Positions 9,429-53,710 of a DNA stretch of 64,000 nucleotides are shown here, one piece after another. The DNA lies in assembly GCA_964433675.1 (NCBI GenBank), contig CAYSSJ010000006.1:62656-126655 (forward strand). The letters run 5' to 3'. Every line of letters starts with the position of its first letter. Positions within the stretch are counted from its first letter, which is position 1. The stretch comes from an uncultured Candidatus Cloacimonadota bacterium (GTDB taxonomy: Bacteria; Cloacimonadota; Cloacimonadia; Cloacimonadales; TCS61). Made by a program: the position numbers and the translations under genes. A model generated the notes under the pieces. The model was given only the letters and a program-made list of their open reading frames with translations. It was not told the origin of the DNA and made no database searches.

Positions 9429-9490
9429 GATTTATTTGGAGGAGACGGTCAGCCGTCAACTGTGTTATAGATTATTATGCTTTGCATAAT

Positions 9491-9539
9491 GGTTAGTGAT
9501 CAATGGTTAATGATCAATTGTTAATGGTTAATTTGGTGG
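9491..9539. repeat. degenerate tandem repeat array, inverted relative to 9887-9966
   Basis: 'ggttagtgatcaatggttaatgatcaattgttaatggttaatttgg'. Its reverse complement gives 'ttaaccatt(a/g)a..a'-type 14-bp units. It overlaps the last codons (LTINN*) of the four-helix-bundle gene. Confidence 0.7.
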
Positions 9540-9876
9540 ATTTTATGATGCTCGTTATTAATTTGATGATTTCAATGGCATCTTGGTTAATTGATTCAAA
9601 TTGCTCTGATGACAGATATTCAGTTTCTTTTAAAAGTTGAAGCCAGTAAATGGTTTCGTTTATTTCTTTTTGAGCGATGGCCATTTTATGTTTGAAATCC
9701 GCCTTGGTTTCAGCATGTTCAGCCTCCCGCACCATAGCGCCAACGCTCGTGCCACATCTCAACAATTGCTTTGAGAGTACAAACTCTTTTTTCTTTTGGC
9801 ACAAATACTGAAAAAGCCGCACGATCCTCACTGCAAAACTAAAACTCTTCTCCTTTACCACATTCTCTTTCACCAC
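9514..9876 (-). CDS. four-helix-bundle protein (23S rRNA intervening-sequence protein family, TIGR02436-like)
   Basis: 120 aa with a GTG start. 'FSFAVRIVRLFQYL...LSKQLLRCGTSVGAMVREAEHAETKADFKHKMAIAQKEINETIYWLQLL' is the characteristic pattern of this family. Confidence 0.8.
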   Translation of the reverse strand: MVKENVVKEKSFSFAVRIVRLFQYLCQKKKEFVLSKQLLRCGTSVGAMVREAEHAETKADFKHKMAIAQKEINETIYWLQLLKETEYLSSEQFESINQDAIEIIKLITSIIKSTKLTINN

Positions 9877-9886
9877 TCACCCCTCA

Positions 9887-9966
9887 TTAACCATTTACAA
9901 TTAACCATTTACAATTTACCATTTACAATTAACCATTCACAATTTACCATTTACAATTAACCAATA
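9887..9966. repeat. 14-bp tandem repeat, about 5.7 copies
   Basis: Units 'ttaaccatttacaa' / 'tttaccatttacaa' / 'ttaaccattcacaa' run head to tail from 9887. The array lies immediately upstream of the four-helix-bundle gene start. Confidence 0.9.
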
Positions 9967-10076
9967 ATGCTCATCTAAGTTTAATTGATACTTTGGATTA
10001 TAGTTTTCTAGTTTGCCACCATAATTCTGCATCTTTTTACCTTTTTCACCATCTTTTTCCCACTCATATTATGTTT
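9964..10076. repeat. direct repeat copy R1 (partner at 17983-18092)
   Basis: About 110 bp, roughly 80 % identical by eye to R2. The 25-nt core 'tgccaccataattctgcatcttttt' is identical (10014-10038 vs 18031-18055). Confidence 0.85.
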
Positions 10077-10094
10077 CTCCGCTCGATTAGCTGG

Positions 10095-10556
10095 TTAGTA
10101 ATCATTTATATGATGTTGTTTCTTATAGTAATCAATCGTTTGCAGCAGCCACCTTATTTGCACTTCATCTTTTGCTAGTTCAATTGCGCTCTGCTTTTCA
10201 AGTAAATCTTTTTGTTGTTGTAAGTTTTTATCAATGCTTTCCTGCAGAGCGACGAGGATATTTTTTTCTAAAGCGCTGCCAATTGCTACTAACTCTCCGC
10301 CTTCAAGATCGGGGTAACGAACACCGAAATATAACCTGTTATGGGTTTCACTGCCGATTTTTCGATCGAAACAAACAATCATCTCTTTTTTGTTTTGATC
10401 TTCTAACACAGCATATGTCGTTCCACCGTCACGATACTTATCAATCTCTACGATCGTAAAGGGCGGATTGTAGTCAAAAGCAATATGTTCGTGGTCAGAT
10501 GTCTTTGCACAAACAAAGAAAAGAGTGGTTATGATGATTAATAATGCTTTTTTCAT
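10095..10556 (-). CDS. hypothetical secreted protein/lipoprotein
   Basis: 153 aa. N-terminal 'MKKALLIIITTLFFVCAK' is signal/lipobox-like. No other motif recognised. Confidence 0.5.
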   Translation of the reverse strand: MKKALLIIITTLFFVCAKTSDHEHIAFDYNPPFTIVEIDKYRDGGTTYAVLEDQNKKEMIVCFDRKIGSETHNRLYFGVRYPDLEGGELVAIGSALEKNILVALQESIDKNLQQQKDLLEKQSAIELAKDEVQIRWLLQTIDYYKKQHHINDY

Positions 10557-10575
10557 AATTTTATGGTGTGTTTAT

Positions 10576-11409
10576 TTAATTGATAATATAACTTGCAGGT
10601 TGTAGCAGTTTTTTGCGTAATCTCCAAAATATAATTGCAATTACAATCGAACATATACTTACTCCAGCCCCCATCTCGCCGAGTAAATTTACCGTACTGC
10701 TTTTCTCGGTTAATAACTGGTCAAAAAAACCTTGAATTAAGAAATTGTGACTCGCATGATAGATTACTCCCACCCACAAACTGGCAGATTTTATTCGCAA
10801 CCACGTTAACATAAAGCTTAATGATATTAATGAAATACAACTAAACAAAACTTTTAGAATTAAGAAATCTCCACCGTAATTGGCGAGTATCATTAAAGGT
10901 AGATGCCATATAGTCCATACCAGACCAATGATAATTGATGTAGTTGTTAAATTTGACAACTTGTATAATCTTGGCGTCAGAAACCCACGCCAACCAACCT
11001 CCTCTCCAAATGCACCAATTGACCTGGCGATTATGCCTATCAGGAACAAAACAATTAATGCAAAACCAGAAGGAGAATCAGTTCCCATGATTGTAATCTG
11101 TTCATTAACAGAACCAATCTTAGTTAACCATGCAAATCCATATATTATTATCCCGTAAGTAATTGGAATTATAAAAGCCAAAAGCAGATACTTAGCTTTT
11201 CCGAATTTCCATCCAAGTTTTTTTATATTCCGTTCACATATTAATCTGGTAATTATAGCCGCAAGAAAAGGCGAATAAACCAATAAAAATGCAGCTATAC
11301 TATCTTCTGCTTTTGATGTTTCAGTTTCCGATATCAAGAAATAACTAATCCCACTTAAAATAAAAAGTAGGATAAAAAAAATACCGATTTCGCTTTTTAT
11401 CTTTCCCAT
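10576..11409 (-). CDS. CPBP-family intramembrane glutamic protease (CAAX/Abi type)
   Basis: 277 aa, polytopic. Carries 'GEEVGWRGFL' (EExxxR), 'TIWH' and 'YHASHNF' motifs. Confidence 0.8.
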   Translation of the reverse strand: MGKIKSEIGIFFILLFILSGISYFLISETETSKAEDSIAAFLLVYSPFLAAIITRLICERNIKKLGWKFGKAKYLLLAFIIPITYGIIIYGFAWLTKIGSVNEQITIMGTDSPSGFALIVLFLIGIIARSIGAFGEEVGWRGFLTPRLYKLSNLTTTSIIIGLVWTIWHLPLMILANYGGDFLILKVLFSCISLISLSFMLTWLRIKSASLWVGVIYHASHNFLIQGFFDQLLTEKSSTVNLLGEMGAGVSICSIVIAIIFWRLRKKLLQPASYIIN

Positions 11410-11444
11410 TTATTAAAAGTTACTCGCTTGTGTTTTATTAAATT

Positions 11445-11581
11445 GCCTGTAACGGTTGCGTGTATGAAACGTTGGGGATTGCGGGCTTCCTTCCTATCCA
11501 CCAACACAAACGCCGATGCGGGGCAGAACGCATGTTTTAACCACTTAAACCCCAATGTTTTATACACGATGTTGGCGGCAG
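11445..11581 (-). repeat. attC-like imperfect palindrome A
   Basis: Left arm 'gcctgtAACggttgcgtgtatgaaacgttgggg' pairs with right arm 'ccccaatgttttatacacgatGTTggcggcag'. It starts 25 nt after the S41 stop and ends 35 nt before the CPBP start. Confidence 0.55.
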
Positions 11582-11606
11582 TTTATAGTTCATAGTTCTT
11601 TGAGTG

Positions 11607-12851
11607 TCAGTACTTGCCTTGCTCAATCAGATTTATTATAAAATCTAATGCAACATCTCTTCCTTCAAAAAAATCATCCAGCGTTTCTTCAACATGATAA
11701 TGCGGTTCAATTGATTTACCCTCCATTGGGAAGCCCTGCGCAGAAAAATACGGTTGTTGTGTAGCCGCCCTGAACCTAATGTTGTTTTTTGTTGTGAAAA
11801 ACCGTGGACCACTTCCGGTATCACCTCCAGTAGGTTTTCCCACCAGAATAGCCTGGGCACCCTCTTTGAGGTCTATGACAAAACTTTCTGCTGCTGAAGA
11901 TGTTAGCCCACTAATCAATAAAAACAGGGTGCCTTTATAGTTATCGTTTCTTGGCGATAATGTTTTTTTAGACACACATGCCTTGTGCGGGTGTTTTAAT
12001 AAATAGGAAGCGATTTGCTCGCTTCTAGGGGAGTTGCCGCCAACATTATTTCGAATATCAATAATAAGATATGGTTTGTCTTTTACATCGTTAAAAGCAT
12101 TCGGGAAATCCAAAAGTGCACGTTCTTGCATTAAAGCAATAGATATATAACCAATGCTATCAGAGATGGCTCTGCTTTCAATCAAAGAACGAGGGGCACC
12201 GGCAGAACTTTTCCTTTTAAAAGGTTCAGGCTTACGGAAAACTACAGAAACCTCTTTTAATCCTTCATCAGTTCTAATTAAATAACTTCGCTCTTCCGGG
12301 AAATAACTCTGGAAAACATTAATTCTTGCTGTTTCTAACGAACCGACTATTGTAGATGCACTAACGTATGACATTTCCTGATTTAACCATTCCATTGCAG
12401 AAATATGATTTATTTCAACTATTTCATCTTTGGGCTGAATTCCTTTTTCTCGAAATGATTCATCAAACACATGGCTCAAATAAAGTCTATCTTCTAATAT
12501 CTTCGCCCAGTTATTAATTTCATACCTTCTTAAAGCTAAATTAGTATGCCCGTTTTCAAGTTCAGCAAAATATTGCAATAATATCCTTATGTATTCCTCG
12601 CCATTTTGAACGGCTTTAATTTGAGAATAAAAAGCTGAGAACAGCGAATCAGGATCGATGCCCTTATGCGAAAAAAATGAATAGTTCTCTTTAATGATAT
12701 GATGTATCTCTTTAAAATCCTCAAGAATTTCCGGCTGCTCAATTTTTAAATCCTCGACATATATAACATCATGTCTTTTTACACAACCAGTCATTAGAAG
12801 CATAAATGCCATAATAAAATAAAAGATACTTTTCTGATGATTATTAATCAT
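11607..12851 (-). CDS. S41-family (tail-specific/C-terminal processing) peptidase
   Basis: 414 aa with a lipoprotein-like N-terminus ('LLMTGC'). Carries 'LIIDIRNNVGGNS' and 'GLTSSAAESFVIDLK...LVGKPTGG' S41 blocks. Confidence 0.8.
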   Translation of the reverse strand: MINNHQKSIFYFIMAFMLLMTGCVKRHDVIYVEDLKIEQPEILEDFKEIHHIIKENYSFFSHKGIDPDSLFSAFYSQIKAVQNGEEYIRILLQYFAELENGHTNLALRRYEINNWAKILEDRLYLSHVFDESFREKGIQPKDEIVEINHISAMEWLNQEMSYVSASTIVGSLETARINVFQSYFPEERSYLIRTDEGLKEVSVVFRKPEPFKRKSSAGAPRSLIESRAISDSIGYISIALMQERALLDFPNAFNDVKDKPYLIIDIRNNVGGNSPRSEQIASYLLKHPHKACVSKKTLSPRNDNYKGTLFLLISGLTSSAAESFVIDLKEGAQAILVGKPTGGDTGSGPRFFTTKNNIRFRAATQQPYFSAQGFPMEGKSIEPHYHVEETLDDFFEGRDVALDFIINLIEQGKY

Positions 12852-12868
12852 AGTATTTGTTTTTTAAT

Positions 12869-12971
12869 TGCCGCCAACGTTCCGCGAGTATCCGAAGTTG
12901 GCGACCATCGGGAGCCAATTTGGGCGTAGCGAAGCGTAGCCGGGTACTCGCTGTTATGTTTAGTGCCCGGC
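12869..12971 (-). repeat. attC-like imperfect palindrome B
   Basis: 'tgccgccAACgttccgcgagtatccg...' pairs with '...cgggtactcgctGTTatgtttagtgcccggc'. The left 10 nt are the exact reverse complement of 11571-11580. The right 19 nt match the reverse complement of 14432-14450 at 17/19. Confidence 0.55.
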
Positions 12972-12989
12972 TGGTTGCAGATAGACGTC

Positions 12990-13012
12990 AAAAAGTACAT
13001 GGATGTACTTTT
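12990..13012 (-). terminator. hairpin terminator after the two-gene cassette
   Basis: Perfect palindrome AAAAGTACAT-gg-ATGTACTTTT with flanking A/T runs, 14 nt downstream of the 156-aa ORF stop. Confidence 0.6.
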
Positions 13013-13025
13013 TGATCATTTGGAA

Positions 13026-13496
13026 TTATTGTTCATCCTCCGTATACGGAATTGGTTTTCTCTCAATGACTATGCCCTTTAATAATTTTTCAAAATCTTT
13101 AAAAGCTGAGCATGCAGTATTCTTACTTATGTATTTAATAAACCCTGGATGTTCGGCTTTAATTGAGAATAGAGAATGTTTATCAATCGGATTTAAAATA
13201 ATGTCTTTCTCGTATAAATGATAATTGATTTTATCTTTTATTGATGGCCACAGCTCATCATAAAACAATGCATTCTTTAAATTCAAATAAGTTTCAGAAT
13301 TCCAAAATTCATTTATTGAAGCAAATACACTACTTGTTCTTAAGACAAATCCTCGAACCTTATTGGGTTTGCTTTTAATCAAGTAAAACCATTCTGTTAT
13401 AATTTCTTTTTCTGTTTCTTCTCCAGTTACTAATGCAAAGATTCCACCAAGCGTTGGAAAGTAGCCACAATGAAAAACTTCAAATTTACTGTCCAT
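13026..13496 (-). CDS. hypothetical protein, partner of the TIR-like protein
   Basis: 156 aa with no recognisable motif. Its own RBS (AGGGGG) sits in the 10-nt gap after the upstream ORF. Confidence 0.6.
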   Translation of the reverse strand: MDSKFEVFHCGYFPTLGGIFALVTGEETEKEIITEWFYLIKSKPNKVRGFVLRTSSVFASINEFWNSETYLNLKNALFYDELWPSIKDKINYHLYEKDIILNPIDKHSLFSIKAEHPGFIKYISKNTACSAFKDFEKLLKGIVIERKPIPYTEDEQ

Positions 13497-13506
13497 ATAT
13501 CCCCCT

Positions 13507-14379
13507 TTAATCTTGTTTATATATTACTTTAAGTCTTTTGTATAACTCATTACTTAAATCTCTCAAACCTTCTTCATTTGGCAAATATTTTAATGCTCTA
13601 TGATGCCCTAAGTCTGAGGGGATGTCATCTATTGATTGTGTAATTGGGATTACAGTTTTTCCTAGAGTATGTGCTATACCTGTTTCATACAACACATTAG
13701 GATTTTTTCCTGAAAAATCAACGACAATAACATTGGCGCAGAATATAAGATCAAAGATGTCCTGAATGAAAGTTGAATTATCCCATATATCATCTGCTCG
13801 GAGACATTCAAGTTTCATATATTCAGCAACCCTCTTTATTGCTGAATAAGTATTTGTAAAAGAACCTTGAAACGGTATCATGACAGAAATAAGTTTACTA
13901 TTAACCTCCTTTTGAGGTACTTGAAAAACACTCGGTTTAAATGTAATCAACCTCTCGGTTTGCACTTCATCAAATGATGTGGAAATAAATTCTCCATGAA
14001 TAGGCAAAACTTTAATCTTTCCATTTGGCTGTTCAGAAATGTTTAAATCATTTGTTTTTAATGATGAAGCAACTGCTTCCATTGCCTTTTCTCGGTTGAC
14101 ATCCTCGTTAAAAAGAAAATGATCTGGATGCAATAAATTTTCAATAACTTTAACAATTTCTGGCGAAGGCATATTAGCAGGTGATTGTTTTTTATTTAAT
14201 TCATCTAAGACATCGCGAACCCACACTCTACGTGTAGAACCATCATGTACATAGTCAAGATCCAAATCCACAAAAAAACGTGTTAGATATGATGAGCTTC
14301 GATAAGGGAAAAAGTTAAATGGATTATCTCCGCATATCATTTCAGCTAATTTAACGATTGTAGCAGATCCTAATTGCAT
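13507..14379 (-). CDS. two-domain protein with C-terminal TIR-like (PF10137-type) nucleotide-binding/NADase-like domain
   Basis: C-terminal 'VMIPFQGSF...IFCANVIVVDFSGKNPNVLYETGIAHTLGKTVIPITQSIDDIPSDLGHHRALKY' fits the bacterial TIR-like hallmark (..NVxFELGy..GkLG..rv..l....PSDL.G..y). I chose the ATG at 14379, preceded by GGAAGGAG. The ORF track extends to a GTG at 14403. Confidence 0.6.
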   Translation of the reverse strand: MQLGSATIVKLAEMICGDNPFNFFPYRSSSYLTRFFVDLDLDYVHDGSTRRVWVRDVLDELNKKQSPANMPSPEIVKVIENLLHPDHFLFNEDVNREKAMEAVASSLKTNDLNISEQPNGKIKVLPIHGEFISTSFDEVQTERLITFKPSVFQVPQKEVNSKLISVMIPFQGSFTNTYSAIKRVAEYMKLECLRADDIWDNSTFIQDIFDLIFCANVIVVDFSGKNPNVLYETGIAHTLGKTVIPITQSIDDIPSDLGHHRALKYLPNEEGLRDLSNELYKRLKVIYKQD

Positions 14380-14431
14380 TAATTCTCCTTCCCCCGAGGC
14401 CACGGATGGCCGAGGACTAAAAAGCCCTTAA

Positions 14432-14512
14432 GCCGGGCATTGAACATAACTACCGCATATATGCCATATGTCGTATATTCCACCATATTGGCACATATCA
14501 CGAATGTTTTAT
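14432..14512 (-). repeat. attC-like imperfect palindrome C (short form)
   Basis: 'acatAACtaccgcatatatgccatatg' pairs with 'catattggcacatatcacgaatGTTttat'. It ends 4 nt from the stop of the 98-aa gene. Confidence 0.5.
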
Positions 14513-14516
14513 TCTT

Positions 14517-14813
14517 TTATTTCTTAAGTGAATTTCTAAAATCATTAGCTCTTTTGTAGAAATCTTCATCTTCACCAAATTCCATAATTCTTGCCACTTT
14601 TCCGTTACAAACTTTACAGTTTCCTACAATCATAATATCATTTAGAGAATCCAATACATATTCTTTGATTTCTATTCCTTTTTCGCAAATACCTCTACAA
14701 GTAGAACAATAAACATTATGATTCACAATGAAGTCCAAACTTTTTTTTTGCTTATCATTTAGTAAAGCATTAAGCTGAAACTTATTAAGTTTAATTTCTT
14801 TCGGTCTTTTCAT
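14517..14813 (-). CDS. small zinc-ribbon-like protein (copy 1 of 2)
   Basis: 98 aa with two CxxC pairs ('CSTCRGIC', 'CKVCNG'). Near-identical paralog at 17668-17964. Confidence 0.65.
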   Translation of the reverse strand: MKRPKEIKLNKFQLNALLNDKQKKSLDFIVNHNVYCSTCRGICEKGIEIKEYVLDSLNDIMIVGNCKVCNGKVARIMEFGEDEDFYKRANDFRNSLKK

Positions 14814-14855: not shown

Positions 14856-15013
14856 GTATAACGGTTACTTATGTATGCCGTAATGCATTGCTGATCAGTT
14901 TCTTGTCCATCGACACGAAAGTCTGAGCAGTTTACAATGCATGAATACCAACTGAACCTACCGAAGGGAACTCAGCGAAGCTAATATCTTATGGCATATA
15001 CACTTTGTTATGC
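14856..15013 (-). repeat. attC-like imperfect palindrome D
   Basis: 'gtatAACggttacttatgtatgccgtaa' pairs with 'cttatggcatatacactttGTTatgc'. It lies between the serine-hydrolase stop and the 98-aa gene start. Confidence 0.5.
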
Positions 15014-16273: not shown

Positions 16274-16400
16274 CGCTAACGTCCCGAGTGTTTGCGGCGA
16301 CCGTCGTCACAATTAAAACCTGATGGAAAAAATGAAAATACAAAAAAGTTAAACTTTGACACTCCTTGGAAAATAGGATGTCGAAAACACTTTGTTATCA
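16274..16400 (-). repeat. attC-like imperfect palindrome E
   Basis: 'cgctAACgtcccgagtgtttgcggcga' pairs with 'tgtcgaaaacactttGTTatca'. The left flank 'aatgaccgctaacg' is identical to that of element F. Confidence 0.45.
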
Positions 16401-16976: not shown

Positions 16977-17098
16977 CGCTAACGGTCGAGTGTGTGTGCC
17001 GTAATGGATAACGGAGCAGTTACCTGCCCTTCCTTAATTGTTCTTCTGGATAAGCTGTTGAAGAAGCCATACTACTGACTTCATAACATAGGTTAGTT
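16977..17098 (-). repeat. weak attC-like element F
   Basis: Shares the 'aatgaccgctAACgg' end with E and has 'ggttagtt' at the other end, but arm pairing is poor (asymmetric spacers). Confidence 0.3.
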
Positions 17099-17587: not shown

Positions 17588-17667
17588 AATAAGTCTAGTT
17601 GTACTAACGAAAAAAGCAAAGATTGCTTATCACGACTACCTATGCTATGTTGCCTGTTGTTTGTCTA

Positions 17668-17964
17668 TTATTTCTCAAGTGAATTTCTAAAATCATTAGC
17701 TCTTTTGTAGAAATCTTCATCTTCACCAAATTCCATAATTCTTGCCACTTTTCCGTTACAAACTTTACAGTTTCCTACAATCATAATATCATTTAGAGAA
17801 TCCAATACATATTCTTTGATTTCTATTCCTTTTTCGCAAATACCTCTACAAGTAGAACAATAAACATTATGATTCACGATGAAGTCCAAACTTTTTTTTT
17901 GCTTATAATTTAGTAATATGTTAAGCTGAAACTTATTAATCCTAATTTCTTTCGGCCTTTTCAT
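17668..17964 (-). CDS. small zinc-ribbon-like protein (copy 2 of 2)
   Basis: 98 aa. Differs from copy 1 at only 6 residues: K8R, L9I, A16I, D20Y in the N-terminal 20, then one residue three from the C-terminus (K to E). Confidence 0.65.
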   Translation of the reverse strand: MKRPKEIRINKFQLNILLNYKQKKSLDFIVNHNVYCSTCRGICEKGIEIKEYVLDSLNDIMIVGNCKVCNGKVARIMEFGEDEDFYKRANDFRNSLEK

Positions 17965-17982: not shown

Positions 17983-18092
17983 TTATGGCTCATCTAAATT
18001 TTTAGTTGATACATTTTTAGTTTTCAAGTCTGCCACCATAATTCTGCATCTTTTTCCCCTTGTCACCTATTTTTTTCCATTCCATATTTCAC
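17983..18092. repeat. direct repeat copy R2 (partner at 9964-10076)
   Basis: See R1. On the minus strand it lies immediately upstream of the first array gene. Confidence 0.85.
17999..18027 (-). promoter_or_regulatory. candidate sigma70-type promoter for the cassette array
   Basis: Minus strand has TTGAAA (18027-18022), a 17-nt spacer, then TAAAAA (18004-17999), about 35 nt upstream of the ATG at 17964. The -10 is weak. Confidence 0.3.
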
Positions 18093-18822
18093 ACTGCTAT
18101 AGCAACTTACACTAAAATATTTTCATCCGCTTTTCGCAAGTAAATACAGCTTCGCCTCGTGACTTGCACAAATTTTTTGAAAAAACAGACATCTTCCAAA
18201 AAACTGTGAAGACGAGAATTGGGGCACTGGTAATTCTGCCAAAATAAATGTCAATCATTTTCTTTCTGTATAACATCCGAGAGAATTTAACTGCCGAAAG
18301 CACTTAGAGCTGAAAGCAGTTTTAAGTGATGAGTAATGAGTTTTTGAGAGAAGCAGGAAGAAAACTTAGCTAAAAGCTATAAGCTATAAGGGATAGGTGA
18401 TCCTTCTTCGCCTAACAGGCTTCGAAGGACACTGTATGTGATGCGGAAAGACAGGCGTAATGACGTACATGTGTCGCCCTGCCTGCCATTTCGTAGTAAA
18501 ACGAAGGATGGAGTGATCCCGATTTTTCGGGATTGTATCGAAGGGTGACAAATAAAATACCGCACTTACTAAGTTCACACTTCGATACGCTCCGGCTTAC
18601 GCCGAAGCTACTCAGTGTGACAAGCTTCTGACCTCTAAACCCTAAACTCTAAACTGCATCCTTGTCCTCCGTAGCCTCCCGAAGCATTTGCGAAGGGAGG
18701 CGAAGGAGGATTGCTACTCTTCCAATAAATCCTATTCTCCCAGCGCTCATCTGCAAAAATCGTTTGACATATATGACAAGAAACTTATTTGTTGATAAAT
18801 TCTAAGAATTAAGGAGAATGTT

Positions 18823-53276: not shown

Positions 53277-53353
53277 TGGGGTGGCTGATGGGACTTGAAC
53301 CCACGACCACAGGAGCCACAATCCTGTGCTCTACCGGCTGAGCTACAGCCACC
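53277..53353 (-). tRNA. tRNA-His (GTG)
   Basis: The reverse complement folds as a cloverleaf. It has an extra 5' G(-1), anticodon loop TTGTGGC, T-loop GGTTCAAGT, and an encoded CCA. Confidence 0.9.
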
Positions 53354-53358
53354 ATCTA

Positions 53359-53435
53359 TGGCACGCCAGAAGGGATTCGAACCCCTGACCTACGGATTAG
53401 AAATCCGTTGCTCTATCCAACTGAGCTACTGGCGC
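53359..53435 (-). tRNA. tRNA-Arg (TCT)
   Basis: Reverse complement 'GCGCCAGTAGCTCAGTTGGATAGAGCAACGGATTTCTAATCCGT...GGTTCGAATCC...CCA'. Anticodon loop TTTCTAA. Confidence 0.9.
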
Positions 53436-53444
53436 ATAATATTT

Positions 53445-53520
53445 TGGTAGCGGCGCAGGGACTCGAACCCCGGACACTCGGATTATGATTCCGATGCTCT
53501 AACCGACTGAGCTACGCCGC
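53445..53520 (-). tRNA. tRNA-Met (CAT), elongator-type (tRNA-Ile2/lysidine not excluded)
   Basis: Reverse complement 'GCGGCGTAGCTCAGTCGGTTAGAGCATCGGAATCATAATCCGAG...GGTTCGAGTCC...CCA'. G1-C72 is paired. Confidence 0.85.
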
Positions 53521-53523
53521 CAA

Positions 53524-53600
53524 TGGTAGCGAGGAGAGGATTTGAACCTCTGGCCTTCAGGTTATGAGCCTGACGAGCTACCTGACTGCTCCACCTCGCA
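53524..53600 (-). tRNA. initiator-like tRNA-Met (CAT), variant anticodon stem
   Basis: 'TGGAGCAGTCAGGTAGCTCGTCAGGCTCATAACCTGAAGG' resembles E. coli tRNA-fMet. Positions 1:72 are unpaired (T/T). The anticodon stem has only two consecutive G:C pairs. Confidence 0.8.
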
Positions 53601-53633
53601 TCACTATTTCACACTATAAATTACAAAAAAAAT

Positions 53634-53710
<77 letters not shown>

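Follow-up and report, generated by a model that had tools for sequence, protein, structure and literature searches.

The segment from 18.0 to 10.1 kb of the window (the whole stretch of 64,000 nucleotides that was analysed), read on the minus strand, is very probably an integron-type gene cassette array without an integrase and with the classical cassette and attC structure. The array of about seven cassettes lies between metY-thrC and TerB genes (metY/thrC and TerB/EamA are the flanking genes nearest to it), and its seven ORF groups are co-oriented on the minus strand with palindromes of 69-158 nt, bounded by AAC...GTT, between them (Table 1). Each unit would consist of one or two promoterless co-oriented ORFs and then an imperfect, attC-like palindrome bounded by ...AAC and GTT.... 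A tyrosine recombinase would cut the downstream GTT between G and TT; because the cut falls there, all bases 3' of that G would belong to the next cassette in the array, and each cassette would have at its 5' end the outer arm of the site that belongs to it. In the excised circle the two arms would meet and the outer (R) stem would be fully paired again. Because the arms meet in the circle, the first bases of a cassette would complement its own downstream palindrome and not the palindrome that they touch. The enzyme, the circular intermediate and the single-stranded bottom strand as substrate would be those of established integron biology, and the cassettes would be mobile only with an integrase supplied in trans.

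Table 1. Cassettes, attC-like sites and bordering elements of the array, with positions in the window
Feature	Position	Strand	Details
Conserved non-coding leader, array head	17988..18250	-	homologous to L125:8400-8700, head of another array
First 98-aa gene copy with doubtful site G	17602..17964	-	gene 17964-17668; site G 17662-17602
Site F, after GNAT gene 17587-17102	16977..17098	-	3' arm and R' GTTAGCG alone recognisable; z=-0.2
Site E, after GrpB gene 16933-16412	16274..16400	-	R'' TGATAAC, R' GTTAGCG; weak palindrome, z=-0.7
Site D, after beta-lactamase-fold gene 16239-15124	14856..15013	-	158 nt; R'' GCATAAC, R' GTTATAC; fold z=-3.9
Site C, after second 98-aa gene copy	14444..14512	-	69 nt; R' GTTATGT 14450-14444
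Two-gene cassette	12878..14449	-	298-aa ORF 14403-13507, 156-aa ORF 13496-13026, then site B
Site B, after two-gene cassette	12872..12972	-	R'' extension AGCCGGGCACTAAACATAAC 12972-12953; R' GTTGGCG 12878-12872
S41 peptidase cassette	11453..12877	-	TT of GTTGGCG to G of GTTACAG; gene 12851-11607; Pfam Peptidase_S41
Site A, after S41 gene	11447..11580	-	R'' extension TGCCGCCAAC 11580-11571; R' GTTACAG 11453-11447; R''-R' 131 nt
Last unit	10090..11452	-	CPBP/Rce1-like protease 11409-10576 and 153-aa ORF 10556-10095; starts GTTACAGGCAATT
Direct repeat, right copy	9975..10067	-	just past last cassette; identical 25-nt core AAAAAGATGCAGAATTATGGTGGCA

Sites A to E are bounded by AAC and GTT, extended in most to the 4-nt TAAC/GTTA; in the 7-nt consensus of the window sites these triplets are kept and the purine/pyrimidine pattern is only partial elsewhere. 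Published attC sites end in RYYYAAC/GTTRRRY and measure 57-141 bp (PMC3053210; the same range in PMC5027507). Sites A (131 nt), B (88 nt), C (69 nt) and E (127 nt) fall inside this range, and site D is slightly outside. Between their R and L boxes, sites A to E have spacers of 3x6, 1x5, 3x3, 3x8 and 3x7 nt, in that order. Extra bases stand on the expected arm in sites C (one) and D (two), and sites A and B have G·T/A·C mismatches only. Site A is predicted to fold into a single hairpin, long and imperfect, whose inner stem has 19 bp; site C also forms a single hairpin in its minimum-energy fold, where the coding strand has its one extra base in the 5' arm. The 298-aa ORF probably starts at an ATG at 14379, which gives a protein of 290 aa, and a terminator-like hairpin lies at 13014-12989 of the same cassette.

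The promoter-proximal part of the array, with the 98-aa, GNAT, GrpB and beta-lactamase-fold units and degenerate sites, looks decayed, and these units are probably no longer mobile. The 3' halves of sites D and F are 72% identical, and sites E and F have in common the L'-R' part and the next 13 nt (GTTAGCGGTCATT). The 5' arm of site F is missing: no complement of GGCACACACAC was found, and the fold is no better than those of shuffles. Site G is not a palindrome (fold z=-0.8). The first 98-aa gene copy has 96% nucleotide identity to 14513-14812, limited to the ribosome-binding site and the ORF. At the other end, the last unit stops at ACTAAC with no palindrome after it. The 3' part of the leader (18082-17988) is the left copy of a direct repeat of about 95 nt, whose right copy follows the last cassette. 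No other copy of the GC-rich hairpin region at 18100-18820 was found in the window or the related loci, nor any Pfam or Rfam match for it. A scan of the array for sigma-70 promoters and terminators was uninformative, and Rfam searches at gathering and permissive thresholds gave tRNAs and one terminator-like chance match only, with no family for the sites. None of the unitig ends (12973, 12928 and about 11549) coincides with a cassette boundary.

The bottom strands of attC sites fold more stably than the top strands (PMC5027507). In all of the 12 circular sites that we reconstructed from four arrays, the strand complementary to the ORFs folded better (mean -4.6 kcal/mol), and the circular form was more stable than the array form, again in 12/12 (mean -7.6 kcal/mol). 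For the bottom strand of site A the energy fell from -25.0 to -33.3 kcal/mol once the S41 cassette's own first bases were attached, and for that of site B it was -33.3 kcal/mol in the circular form against -20.3 kcal/mol in the array form. In the array form, sites A and B agree with the preference for the bottom strand, site C is reversed, and sites D and E are about equal; the array-form energies of B, C and E are barely better than those of shuffles, and the array-form z-scores, being too weak, were not used as evidence.

No Phage_integrase domain was detected in the window ORFs of at least 140 aa, and no tyrosine recombinase or integrase in a further 9 kb of the source contig; the integrase-free span around the array extends for about 19 kb to one side and 46 kb to the other. 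Searches by tblastn with IntI1 gave no match in the window or in 133 related loci; they replaced a regular expression for box II of tyrosine recombinases, which was insensitive and missed a phage-type integrase in locus L119. Because no integrase is encoded nearby, the array would be a CALIN, provided that its sites count as attC, for which five (A-E) are structurally plausible. CALINs without a nearby intI are common, and chimeric attC sites have been described in arrays and CALINs (PMC4889954). In a scan of a genome collection with the metY-like neighbour, the closest match was in a Candidatus Cloacimonas MAG (78% amino acid identity), where no array lies beside the gene, and exact-protein matches of the window genes came from the same population only. 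Judged by title or abstract, the papers found by a full-text search that combined integrons with Cloacimonas names are all community or resistance-gene surveys.

It is improbable that these are integron-like cassettes served by a recombinase other than the canonical IntI. This explanation could draw on the lack of IntI in the window and the 133 loci, on a lineage-specific site consensus with spacers of 1-3 x 5-8 nt and no clear extrahelical bases, and on the leader of about 250 nt, which is conserved at the head of two arrays with different cassette content, neither with an adjacent integrase. However, with short contigs and arrays that may be long, not seeing intI is weak evidence, and the AAC/GTT crossover triplets, the cassette organization, the bottom-strand bias and the CALIN-like context are all integron-like.

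The strings quoted in the initial annotation all lie at the positions it gave. On the minus strand, the start of the S41 cassette (12878-12869, GTTGGCGGCA) pairs at 10/10 positions with 11580-11571, just as had been reported there, and the pairing reaches 12/13 when extended, with A opposite C at position 11. The start of the two-gene cassette (14450-14431) pairs at 18/20 positions with 12972-12953; the earlier count had been 17/19, and the repeat finder, with arms 12953-12972 and 14431-14450 of 20 nt and 90% complementarity, adds one more pair. We then compared each R''-side (AAC end) with each R'-side (GTT start) of the seven sites in a matrix. Beyond the AAC/GTT core, the pairs formed by the ends of one cassette matched at 15/17 positions for the two-gene cassette, 11/17 for S41 (7/7 of them contiguous), 10/17 for GNAT and 6-8/17 for the remaining three, and all of the 36 non-adjacent site pairs were at or below 8/17. 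The two ends of a single palindrome had been said to share AAC/GTT only, and the same-site pairs bear this out (2/17 for site B and 8/17 for site A). The first bases complement their own R'' clearly in two of the six window cassettes, with a third borderline; in the other three the complementarity stops at TAAC. It had been noticed by eye that D/C, E/D and F/E match only around this motif, which is correct. Own pairs other than those of the two-gene and S41 cassettes score at background level or close to it; E/F reaches 11/15, with scattered mismatches. In nine further cassettes of the arrays L035, L076 and L125, own-pair stems of 9-25 nt were found.

Complementarity alone is unable to assign a palindrome to an ORF: a crossover at the AAC end predicts identical pairs. 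In that case the site of each cassette would be the palindrome upstream of its ORF, and the direction of the array would be opposite to that of its ORFs. As far as sequences can tell, comparison with other arrays settles the question for a crossover between G and TT, with the palindrome owned by the upstream ORF. Array L035 carries the cassette of the 298-aa gene (a 291-aa homologue with 81% amino acid identity) without the 156-aa gene. The similarity to the window begins exactly at the GTT upstream of this gene and runs on past the 3' UTR, across the R'' extension and the interior of the downstream palindrome, up to the downstream GTT. Site B is homologous to the site following the 291-aa gene (global alignment z=4.4; 3/2000 shuffles equally good), whereas the upstream palindromes are unrelated (z=-0.9). 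Between the two copies GTTATGT/ACATAAC is changed to GTTGTGT/ACACAAC, so that an A/T pair is replaced by G/C and the pairing is kept. The upstream site in L035 is of the repeat type of the host array, and the downstream site is foreign and resembles site B. Among 24 homologous cassettes, the start and its own downstream R'' covary through 13 different sequences. When the inner 60 nt were compared in the 276 pairs of homologous cassettes, the downstream site alone was similar in 12 and the upstream site alone in three, all marginal.

The S41 cassette has a homologue in array L125 (89% amino acid identity) that starts with GTTGCCGGCAATTAAAAA and is followed by the same TGCCGCCAAC, and its upstream site is unrelated. 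Conservation between the window and L125 does not extend to the inner part of its downstream site; the L125 contig, however, stops 60 nt into the site, of which only the R'' part can be verified. The 298-aa and S41 cassettes both occur in different arrays with different neighbours, with breakpoints at GTT. The L035 breakpoints and the covariation uphold the earlier claim of a crossover within GTT, but its corollary, that the distal half of each site belongs to the neighbouring cassette, went too far: the neighbour owns no more than what follows the G of GTT on its 3' side, namely the outer arm of the R box and its extension, and both inner arms and the loop remain with the upstream ORF.

A crossover at the AAC end appears very unlikely in view of these comparisons, in all of which (the L035 sites, the repeat types and the count of 12 against three) the downstream site is favoured, and of the orientation of the ORFs. 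The folding of the ORF-complementary strand also argues against it, as does the excess of G·T wobbles on that strand (14 vs 2). It predicts the flank complementarity equally well, and it would accommodate the additional unpaired bases in the central spacer, which lie on the arm opposite the textbook extrahelical bases, as well as the last unit, whose end (...ACTAAC, with no palindrome) is the one expected of a first cassette beside an attI. The S41 flanks would also agree with it, since the upstream site, like the downstream one, has an inner part that is not conserved in L125. The two positions would differ in the junctions they produce: an AAC-end crossover excludes a junction of the 3' arm of site A to TTGGCGGCA... 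and allows ...TGCCGCCAA joined to C and the inner part of site B. Complementarity, covariation, breakpoint positions and the dependence of predicted folding on strand and form are direct observations in these arrays.

The ends might also be terminal inverted repeats of cargo transposons or MITE-like elements inserted in palindromic intergenic targets, which would agree with the inverted matches of 18/20 and 10/10 and with the conserved S41 unit of the window and L125, which looks bounded by repeats. We regard such an origin as highly improbable. There is no transposase and no target-site duplication at the ends, the terminal sequence differs from unit to unit, and among homologues of the same gene the ends change yet stay self-complementary (the 13 versions mentioned above). 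Moreover, they always adjoin the AAC/GTT of a palindrome. The initial annotation had named a family of such repeats around unrelated DNA as an alternative; instead, the window has no further copies of the repeats, and L035 and L125 have these ends around the same gene as here, not around unrelated DNA.

Matches no better than AT-rich sequence gives by chance had been named as a second alternative; taken by themselves, the matches of one cassette only were better than that. Against a background of 22,473 GTT...AAC pairs 300-2000 nt apart in the whole window, an anchored match of 18/20 was observed once and never in 200 shuffles, and a chance origin for the ends of the two-gene cassette is refuted by the shuffles and the comparative data. 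Anchored matches of 10/10 occur about 2.4 times per strand in shuffles, and the window has three, one of them an internal GTTGGCGGCA at 12044 within the S41 gene; because 10/10 alone is not rare, the S41 match is meaningful only by its exact placement on two predicted boundaries. Chance pairing of AT-rich flanks around ordinary hairpins (terminators or REP-like repeats) has therefore, despite these 10/10 frequencies and the weak folding z-scores of several sites, a negligible probability, given the matches on predicted boundaries, the covariation and compensatory changes among homologues and the 9-25 nt stems in three other arrays.

By Pfam, the cargo includes GNAT, GrpB, beta-lactamase-fold, S41 and CPBP proteins together with unknowns, and is typical of cassettes. 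The 290-aa protein has 1221 homologues in different phyla (identities of 70-81%), and some of these bear the name 'AbiJ N-terminal domain-containing'; in PADLOC it gave a weak match to TIR. It may be regarded from these matches as a putative anti-phage protein with AbiJ-N-like and TIR-like domains, very widespread. The close homologues P0015, P0012 and P0026 lie in defence or genomic islands, not in arrays, and have no IntI; homologues also occur in defence islands of Shewanella and other bacteria.

The matching of cassette ends is the classical proof of the cut position in integron cassettes; the crossover between G and TT is long established and no new inference, and our data add nothing on the mechanism. 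The array is ordinary apart from its unusually long outer stems; what it does show is a Cloacimonas-like anaerobe carrying an integrase-less cassette array. In this array and the three related ones, the outer stem of 9-25 bp has a nearly invariant A·C (G·T on the bottom strand) at position 11, with the extended consensus AAC-N7-AAC ... GTT-N7-ATT. L035 and L076 have one conserved site family each (62-nt and 132-nt repeats); a crude AAC-stem-GTT site finder, with many false positives in AT-rich coding sequence, was used only for locating the L076 family. We tentatively raise the possibility, itself rather unlikely, that the window, L035, L076 and L125 have a distinct attC architecture (an R stem of 13-25 bp that can form only in the circle, a nearly invariant bottom-strand G·T at position 11 and a 1x5-nt spacer), and that the leader without an integrase points to a recombinase, perhaps non-canonical, that acts in trans. 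The long R stem, the wobble and the 1x5 spacer might take the place of extrahelical bases in selecting the strand, and they might favour folding of free over arrayed cassettes. If functional, the extended R stem and conserved wobble would give single-stranded recombination sites a second way of selecting strand and form, and would help in the search for attC sites beyond the Proteobacteria.

Like known integron cassettes and their attC sites (59-base elements), the units consist of a promoterless ORF and a 3' palindrome, the sites in the array are chimeric and more stable on the bottom strand, the first bases complete the cassette's own site in the circle, and the same cassette is found in different arrays. 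Textbook attC sites have extrahelical bases on the '' arm, a G at about position 16 and a T at about 23-24; sites A and B have no clear extrahelical G/T bases. The sites here also differ from the textbook in the outer stem (9-25 vs 7 bp), the near-invariant A·C at position 11 with a second AAC/ATT box, the strongly asymmetric central spacers (1-3 vs 3-8 nt, the textbook having 5-6 per arm) and the length of site D, above the usual 57-141 nt. In pdif/Xer modules, too, units are bounded by inverted repeats with one composite site between neighbours, but those sites are of 28 bp (XerC-spacer-XerD) and the present ones are hairpins of 69-158 nt; the start of the two-gene cassette (TTATGTTCAAT) resembles the XerD arm (TTATGTTAAAT), and the other cassette starts do not. 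The array resembles CALINs (Cury et al. 2016, PMC4889954) in its number of attC-like sites (five or more), in the lack of an integrase within 4 kb of them, in its chromosomal location and in cassettes that are not antibiotic-resistance genes; here the host is Cloacimonadota-like, and the identification comes from structure and comparative evidence, not from the IntegronFinder model. L035 and L076, homogeneous within each array, are like sedentary chromosomal integrons such as the Vibrio cholerae repeats, whereas the window sites are heterogeneous in length and sequence and thus nearer to a mobile integron or an array of mixed origin.

The window contains a new cassette array, integrase-less and in part decayed, and its genome is Cloacimonas-like. 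On the minus strand between about 18.0 and 10.1 kb of the window, co-oriented ORFs alternate with G+C-richer imperfect palindromes, each of which starts ...AAC and ends GTT.... We name these attC-like sites A (after the S41 gene), B (after the two-gene cassette of the 298-aa and 156-aa ORFs), C (after the second 98-aa copy), D (after the beta-lactamase-fold gene), E (after GrpB), F (after GNAT) and the doubtful G (after the first 98-aa copy). Housekeeping genes flank the array. The nearest genome match of an array-neighbouring gene (78% at the amino acid level) was in a Candidatus Cloacimonas MAG, in which no array stood beside the matching gene. Identity between the two 98-aa copies is confined to the RBS and ORF. 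In a public contig from a sister sample (L005), the first copy was joined directly to site C: either recombination between the two genes deleted 3151 nt, or the contig is an assembly chimera. Breaks within this repeat occur in several assemblies.

Features of the cassette array and its surroundings (window positions; R'' is the outer arm on the AAC side of a palindrome)
Feature	Position	Strand	Remarks
Flank, one side			Cys/Met PLP enzyme, threonine synthase, phosphoglycerate mutase
Hairpin-rich non-coding stretch	18100-18820		~700 nt, between metY-like gene and array
Leader	18250-18010	minus	~250 nt, non-coding; includes left ~95-nt copy
~95-nt direct copy, left	18082-17988	minus
98-aa protein, first copy	17964-17668	minus	CxxC-rich; 96% nt identity to second copy
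GNAT acetyltransferase			single cassette gene
GrpB protein			single cassette gene
GTTAGCGGTCATT, GrpB cassette start	16983-16971
Beta-lactamase-fold protein			single cassette gene
GTTAGCGGTCATT, beta-lactamase-fold cassette start	16280-16268
98-aa protein, second copy	14813-14517	minus	CxxC-rich
Two-gene cassette start, GTTATGTTCAATGCCCGGC	14450-14432	minus
298-aa protein	14403-13507	minus	function not assigned by domain search
156-aa protein	13496-13026	minus	function not assigned by domain search
Hairpin of two-gene cassette	13014-12989
R'' of site B, GCCGGGCACTAAACATAAC	12971-12953	minus
S41 cassette start, GTTGGCGGCA	12878-12869	minus
S41 peptidase
Stray GTTGGCGGCA	12044-12035		within S41 gene
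R'' of site A, TGCCGCCAAC	11580-11571	minus
CPBP/Rce1-like protease			with 153-aa partner
~95-nt direct copy, right	10067-9975	minus
14-nt tandem-repeat arrays	9487-9532 and 9872-9977		inverted; AATGGTTAATTGTA-like
23S_rRNA_IVP / four-helix-bundle gene	9514-9876		between the 14-nt arrays
Flank, other side			TerB, EamA, HPP proteins
Five clustered tRNA genes	53277-53710	minus	His, Arg-TCT, three Met-CAT
Glycogen/maltodextrin gene set	28.8-53 kb		amylases, phosphorylase, glycogen synthase, 4-alpha-glucanotransferase, ABC sugar transporter

The initial annotation held that the first bases of each cassette match the inverse core of its own downstream site. Both of its examples were recovered in place, 10/10 for the S41 cassette and 17/19 for the two-gene cassette, and a repeat finder lengthened the latter to 18/20. 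We scored all AAC sides against all GTT sides of the seven sites, and call the start of a cassette and the R'' of the site downstream of the same ORF group its own pair. Beyond the core, the two-gene own pair matched at 15/17 positions and the S41 pair at 11/17 (7/7 contiguous). These two stand out and the GNAT pair does so weakly (10/17); the remaining three own pairs scored 6-8/17, and the maximum over 36 non-adjacent site pairs was 8/17. At site B, the two ends of the palindrome are alike at AAC/GTT only (2/17). An anchored 18/20 match arose in 0/200 window shuffles. For the S41 10/10 match, about 2.4 occurrences were expected per strand and 3 were found in the window, including a stray exact copy of GTTGGCGGCA within the S41 gene that is probably a coincidence and shows 10 nt taken alone to be weak evidence. 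The S41 match is therefore meaningful solely through its exact fit to both predicted boundaries.

Flank complementarity does not tell a crossover at the GTT end, where the downstream palindrome is the ORF's own, from one at the AAC end, where the upstream palindrome is, since either model predicts it; the same cassettes were therefore sought in other arrays. Homologues of the 298-aa protein number 1221 (70-81% identity) and come from widely differing phyla; one of them, at 81% amino acid identity, sits in another low-G+C array (L035). On the 5' side, similarity to L035 begins exactly at GTT (GTTATGTTCAATGCC vs GTTGTGTTCAATGCC), and the palindromes preceding the gene are unrelated (z=-0.9). On the 3' side, the 3' UTR, the R'' extension (AGCCGGGCACTAAACATAAC vs AGCCAGGCACAAAACACAAC) and the inner palindrome are homologous as far as GTT (z=4.4; 3/2000 shuffles equally good), and an A-to-G change in the cassette start is matched by T-to-C in R''. 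The upstream site in L035 belongs to the 62-nt repeat type of the host array itself; the downstream site is foreign to that array and similar to site B. Scanning metagenomes added 79 loci. The comparison covered 24 cassettes whose ends are clear: the window's own and 23 drawn from the scan or L035. Their starts were complementary to their own downstream R'' across 7-20 nt, in 13 different sequences. The inner 60 nt were similar downstream but not upstream in 12 pairs; upstream-only similarity, as an AAC-end crossover would have it, occurred in 3 pairs and was marginal. The S41 cassette recurs in another related array (L125; 89% amino acid identity) with the start GTTGCCGGCAATTAAAAA, then the same TGCCGCCAAC, and an unrelated site before it; its downstream site, 60 nt into which the contig stops, showed no recognisable conservation in the inner part. 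The proposal that recombination occurs inside the GTT box was thus right, given the breakpoint in L035 and the downstream site that goes with the ORF.

The 298-aa family is very widespread, and some members are named 'AbiJ N-terminal domain-containing'; the window protein had a weak TIR match in PADLOC. Members occur in cassettes and also in defence islands, adjoining OLD-like ATPases, SLATT and type I R-M genes. Neither the 156-aa partner nor the hairpin after it is present in the two other cassette copies with neighbours examined, L035 and Photobacterium carnosum (L036/L037).

Known attC sites are imperfect palindromes bounded by RYYYAAC and GTTRRRY (PMC3053210). It is the bottom strand that folds, and cleavage falls in the AAC of R', the GTT-side outer arm, which on the top strand corresponds to the step from G to TT (PMC5027507), so that arrayed sites are chimeric, as has been described (PMC4889954). 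The established integron mechanism, with which the window and the comparative data agree, is the most likely one. For the window array, we infer the enzyme, the excised circle and the single-stranded substrate. The circle would bring a cassette's own first bases onto its site, with predicted junctions of ...CATACACGCAACCG + TTGGCGGCAATT at the 3' arm of site A and ...ACTCGCGGAACG + TTATGTTCAATGCC at site B; predicted empty junctions are ...G + TTGGCGGCA at site C and ...G + TTACAGGCA at site B. With DNA parameters, we computed folds of each site in its array form and in this circular form. The bottom strand went from -25.0 to -33.3 kcal/mol for the S41 cassette site and from -20.3 to -33.3 kcal/mol for the two-gene cassette site. 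Among 12 cassettes from four arrays, the circular form was always the more stable (12/12; mean -7.6 kcal/mol), as was the strand complementary to the ORF over the coding strand (12/12; mean -4.6).

No tyrosine-recombinase domain was found in any ORF of at least 140 aa in the 64-kb window or in 9 kb of further contig, and tblastn with IntI1 gave no match in the window or 133 related loci. The array thus falls under the CALIN definition, attC-like sites without a nearby integrase, and cassette movement would require an integrase in trans.

On either side of the array stands one direct copy of a ~95-nt sequence; the two are 84% identical across a 68-nt repeat core and share a 25-nt identical stretch (AAAAAGATGCAGAATTATGGTGGCA), with no additional copy in the window. 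Candidate explanations of the pair are an att-like duplication, the scar of a Campbell-type insertion and a repeated leader. A sequence homologous to the leader stands at the head of the L125 array (L125:8400-8700), whose cassettes are different. Leader and homologue are identical in the blocks AAGTCACGAGGCGAAGCTGTA and GAAAAGCGGAT.AAAATATT, and no integrase lies beside either. The leader may be a promoter or an attI-like platform. The non-coding stretch nearby contains many G+C-rich CCTTCG...CGAAGG hairpins not bounded by AAC/GTT, with no Rfam or Pfam match and no second copy in the window or loci. Beyond the other end, the 46-nt arms around the 23S_rRNA_IVP gene are 78% complementary. Farther away, the large glycogen/maltodextrin set lies around the tRNA cluster.

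The promoter-proximal half of the array appears decayed. Site G fails to form a palindrome, site F misses its 5' arm, and for the 98-aa, beta-lactamase-fold and GrpB cassettes own-pair complementarity does not rise, or hardly rises, above background. Sites E and F carry an identical GTTAGCGGTCATT. They also have their 3' arm in common, which points to duplication or gene conversion between sites. The same sequence opens three different cassettes, those of GrpB and the beta-lactamase-fold protein and one in a further related array (L076, 3737), and the matching R'' (ACCGCTAAC) is present in the L076 cassette only.

End complementarity is an already-known hallmark of integron cassettes, and the sites depart from textbook attC in other respects. 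Textbook sites have a 7-nt consensus, whereas here just the AAC/GTT triplets are well kept. Central spacers are asymmetric (1-3 nt vs 3-8 nt) instead of 5-6 nt per arm, and where textbook sites bulge, A and B show G·T/A·C mismatches instead; the array-form folds of B, C and E were barely above shuffles. Against a canonical R box of 7 bp, own-pair complementarity reached 12/13 and 18/20 in the window, 20/24, 20/23 and 23/25 in L035, 9/9, 14/15, 15/17 and 14/15 in L076, and 13/14 and 11/13 in L125; proteobacterial-type homologues in the 24-cassette set have 7-12 bp. Mismatches in the extended stems gave 14 bottom-strand G·T wobbles vs 2 on the top strand (binomial p=0.004). A survey of cassette starts and R'' extensions of window sites A, B, D and E and of L035, L076 and L125 yielded the consensus AAC-N7-AAC ... 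GTT-N7-ATT, derived from few sites, all in related arrays. At position 11 from the G of GTT, A stood opposite C in 11/12 own pairs of these four arrays. We found no published description of the long stem and position-11 feature, for which the literature was not searched specifically. The long stem with its position-11 wobble is a lead rather than a result, and such lineage-specific departures from known attC sites may be worth specialist attention.
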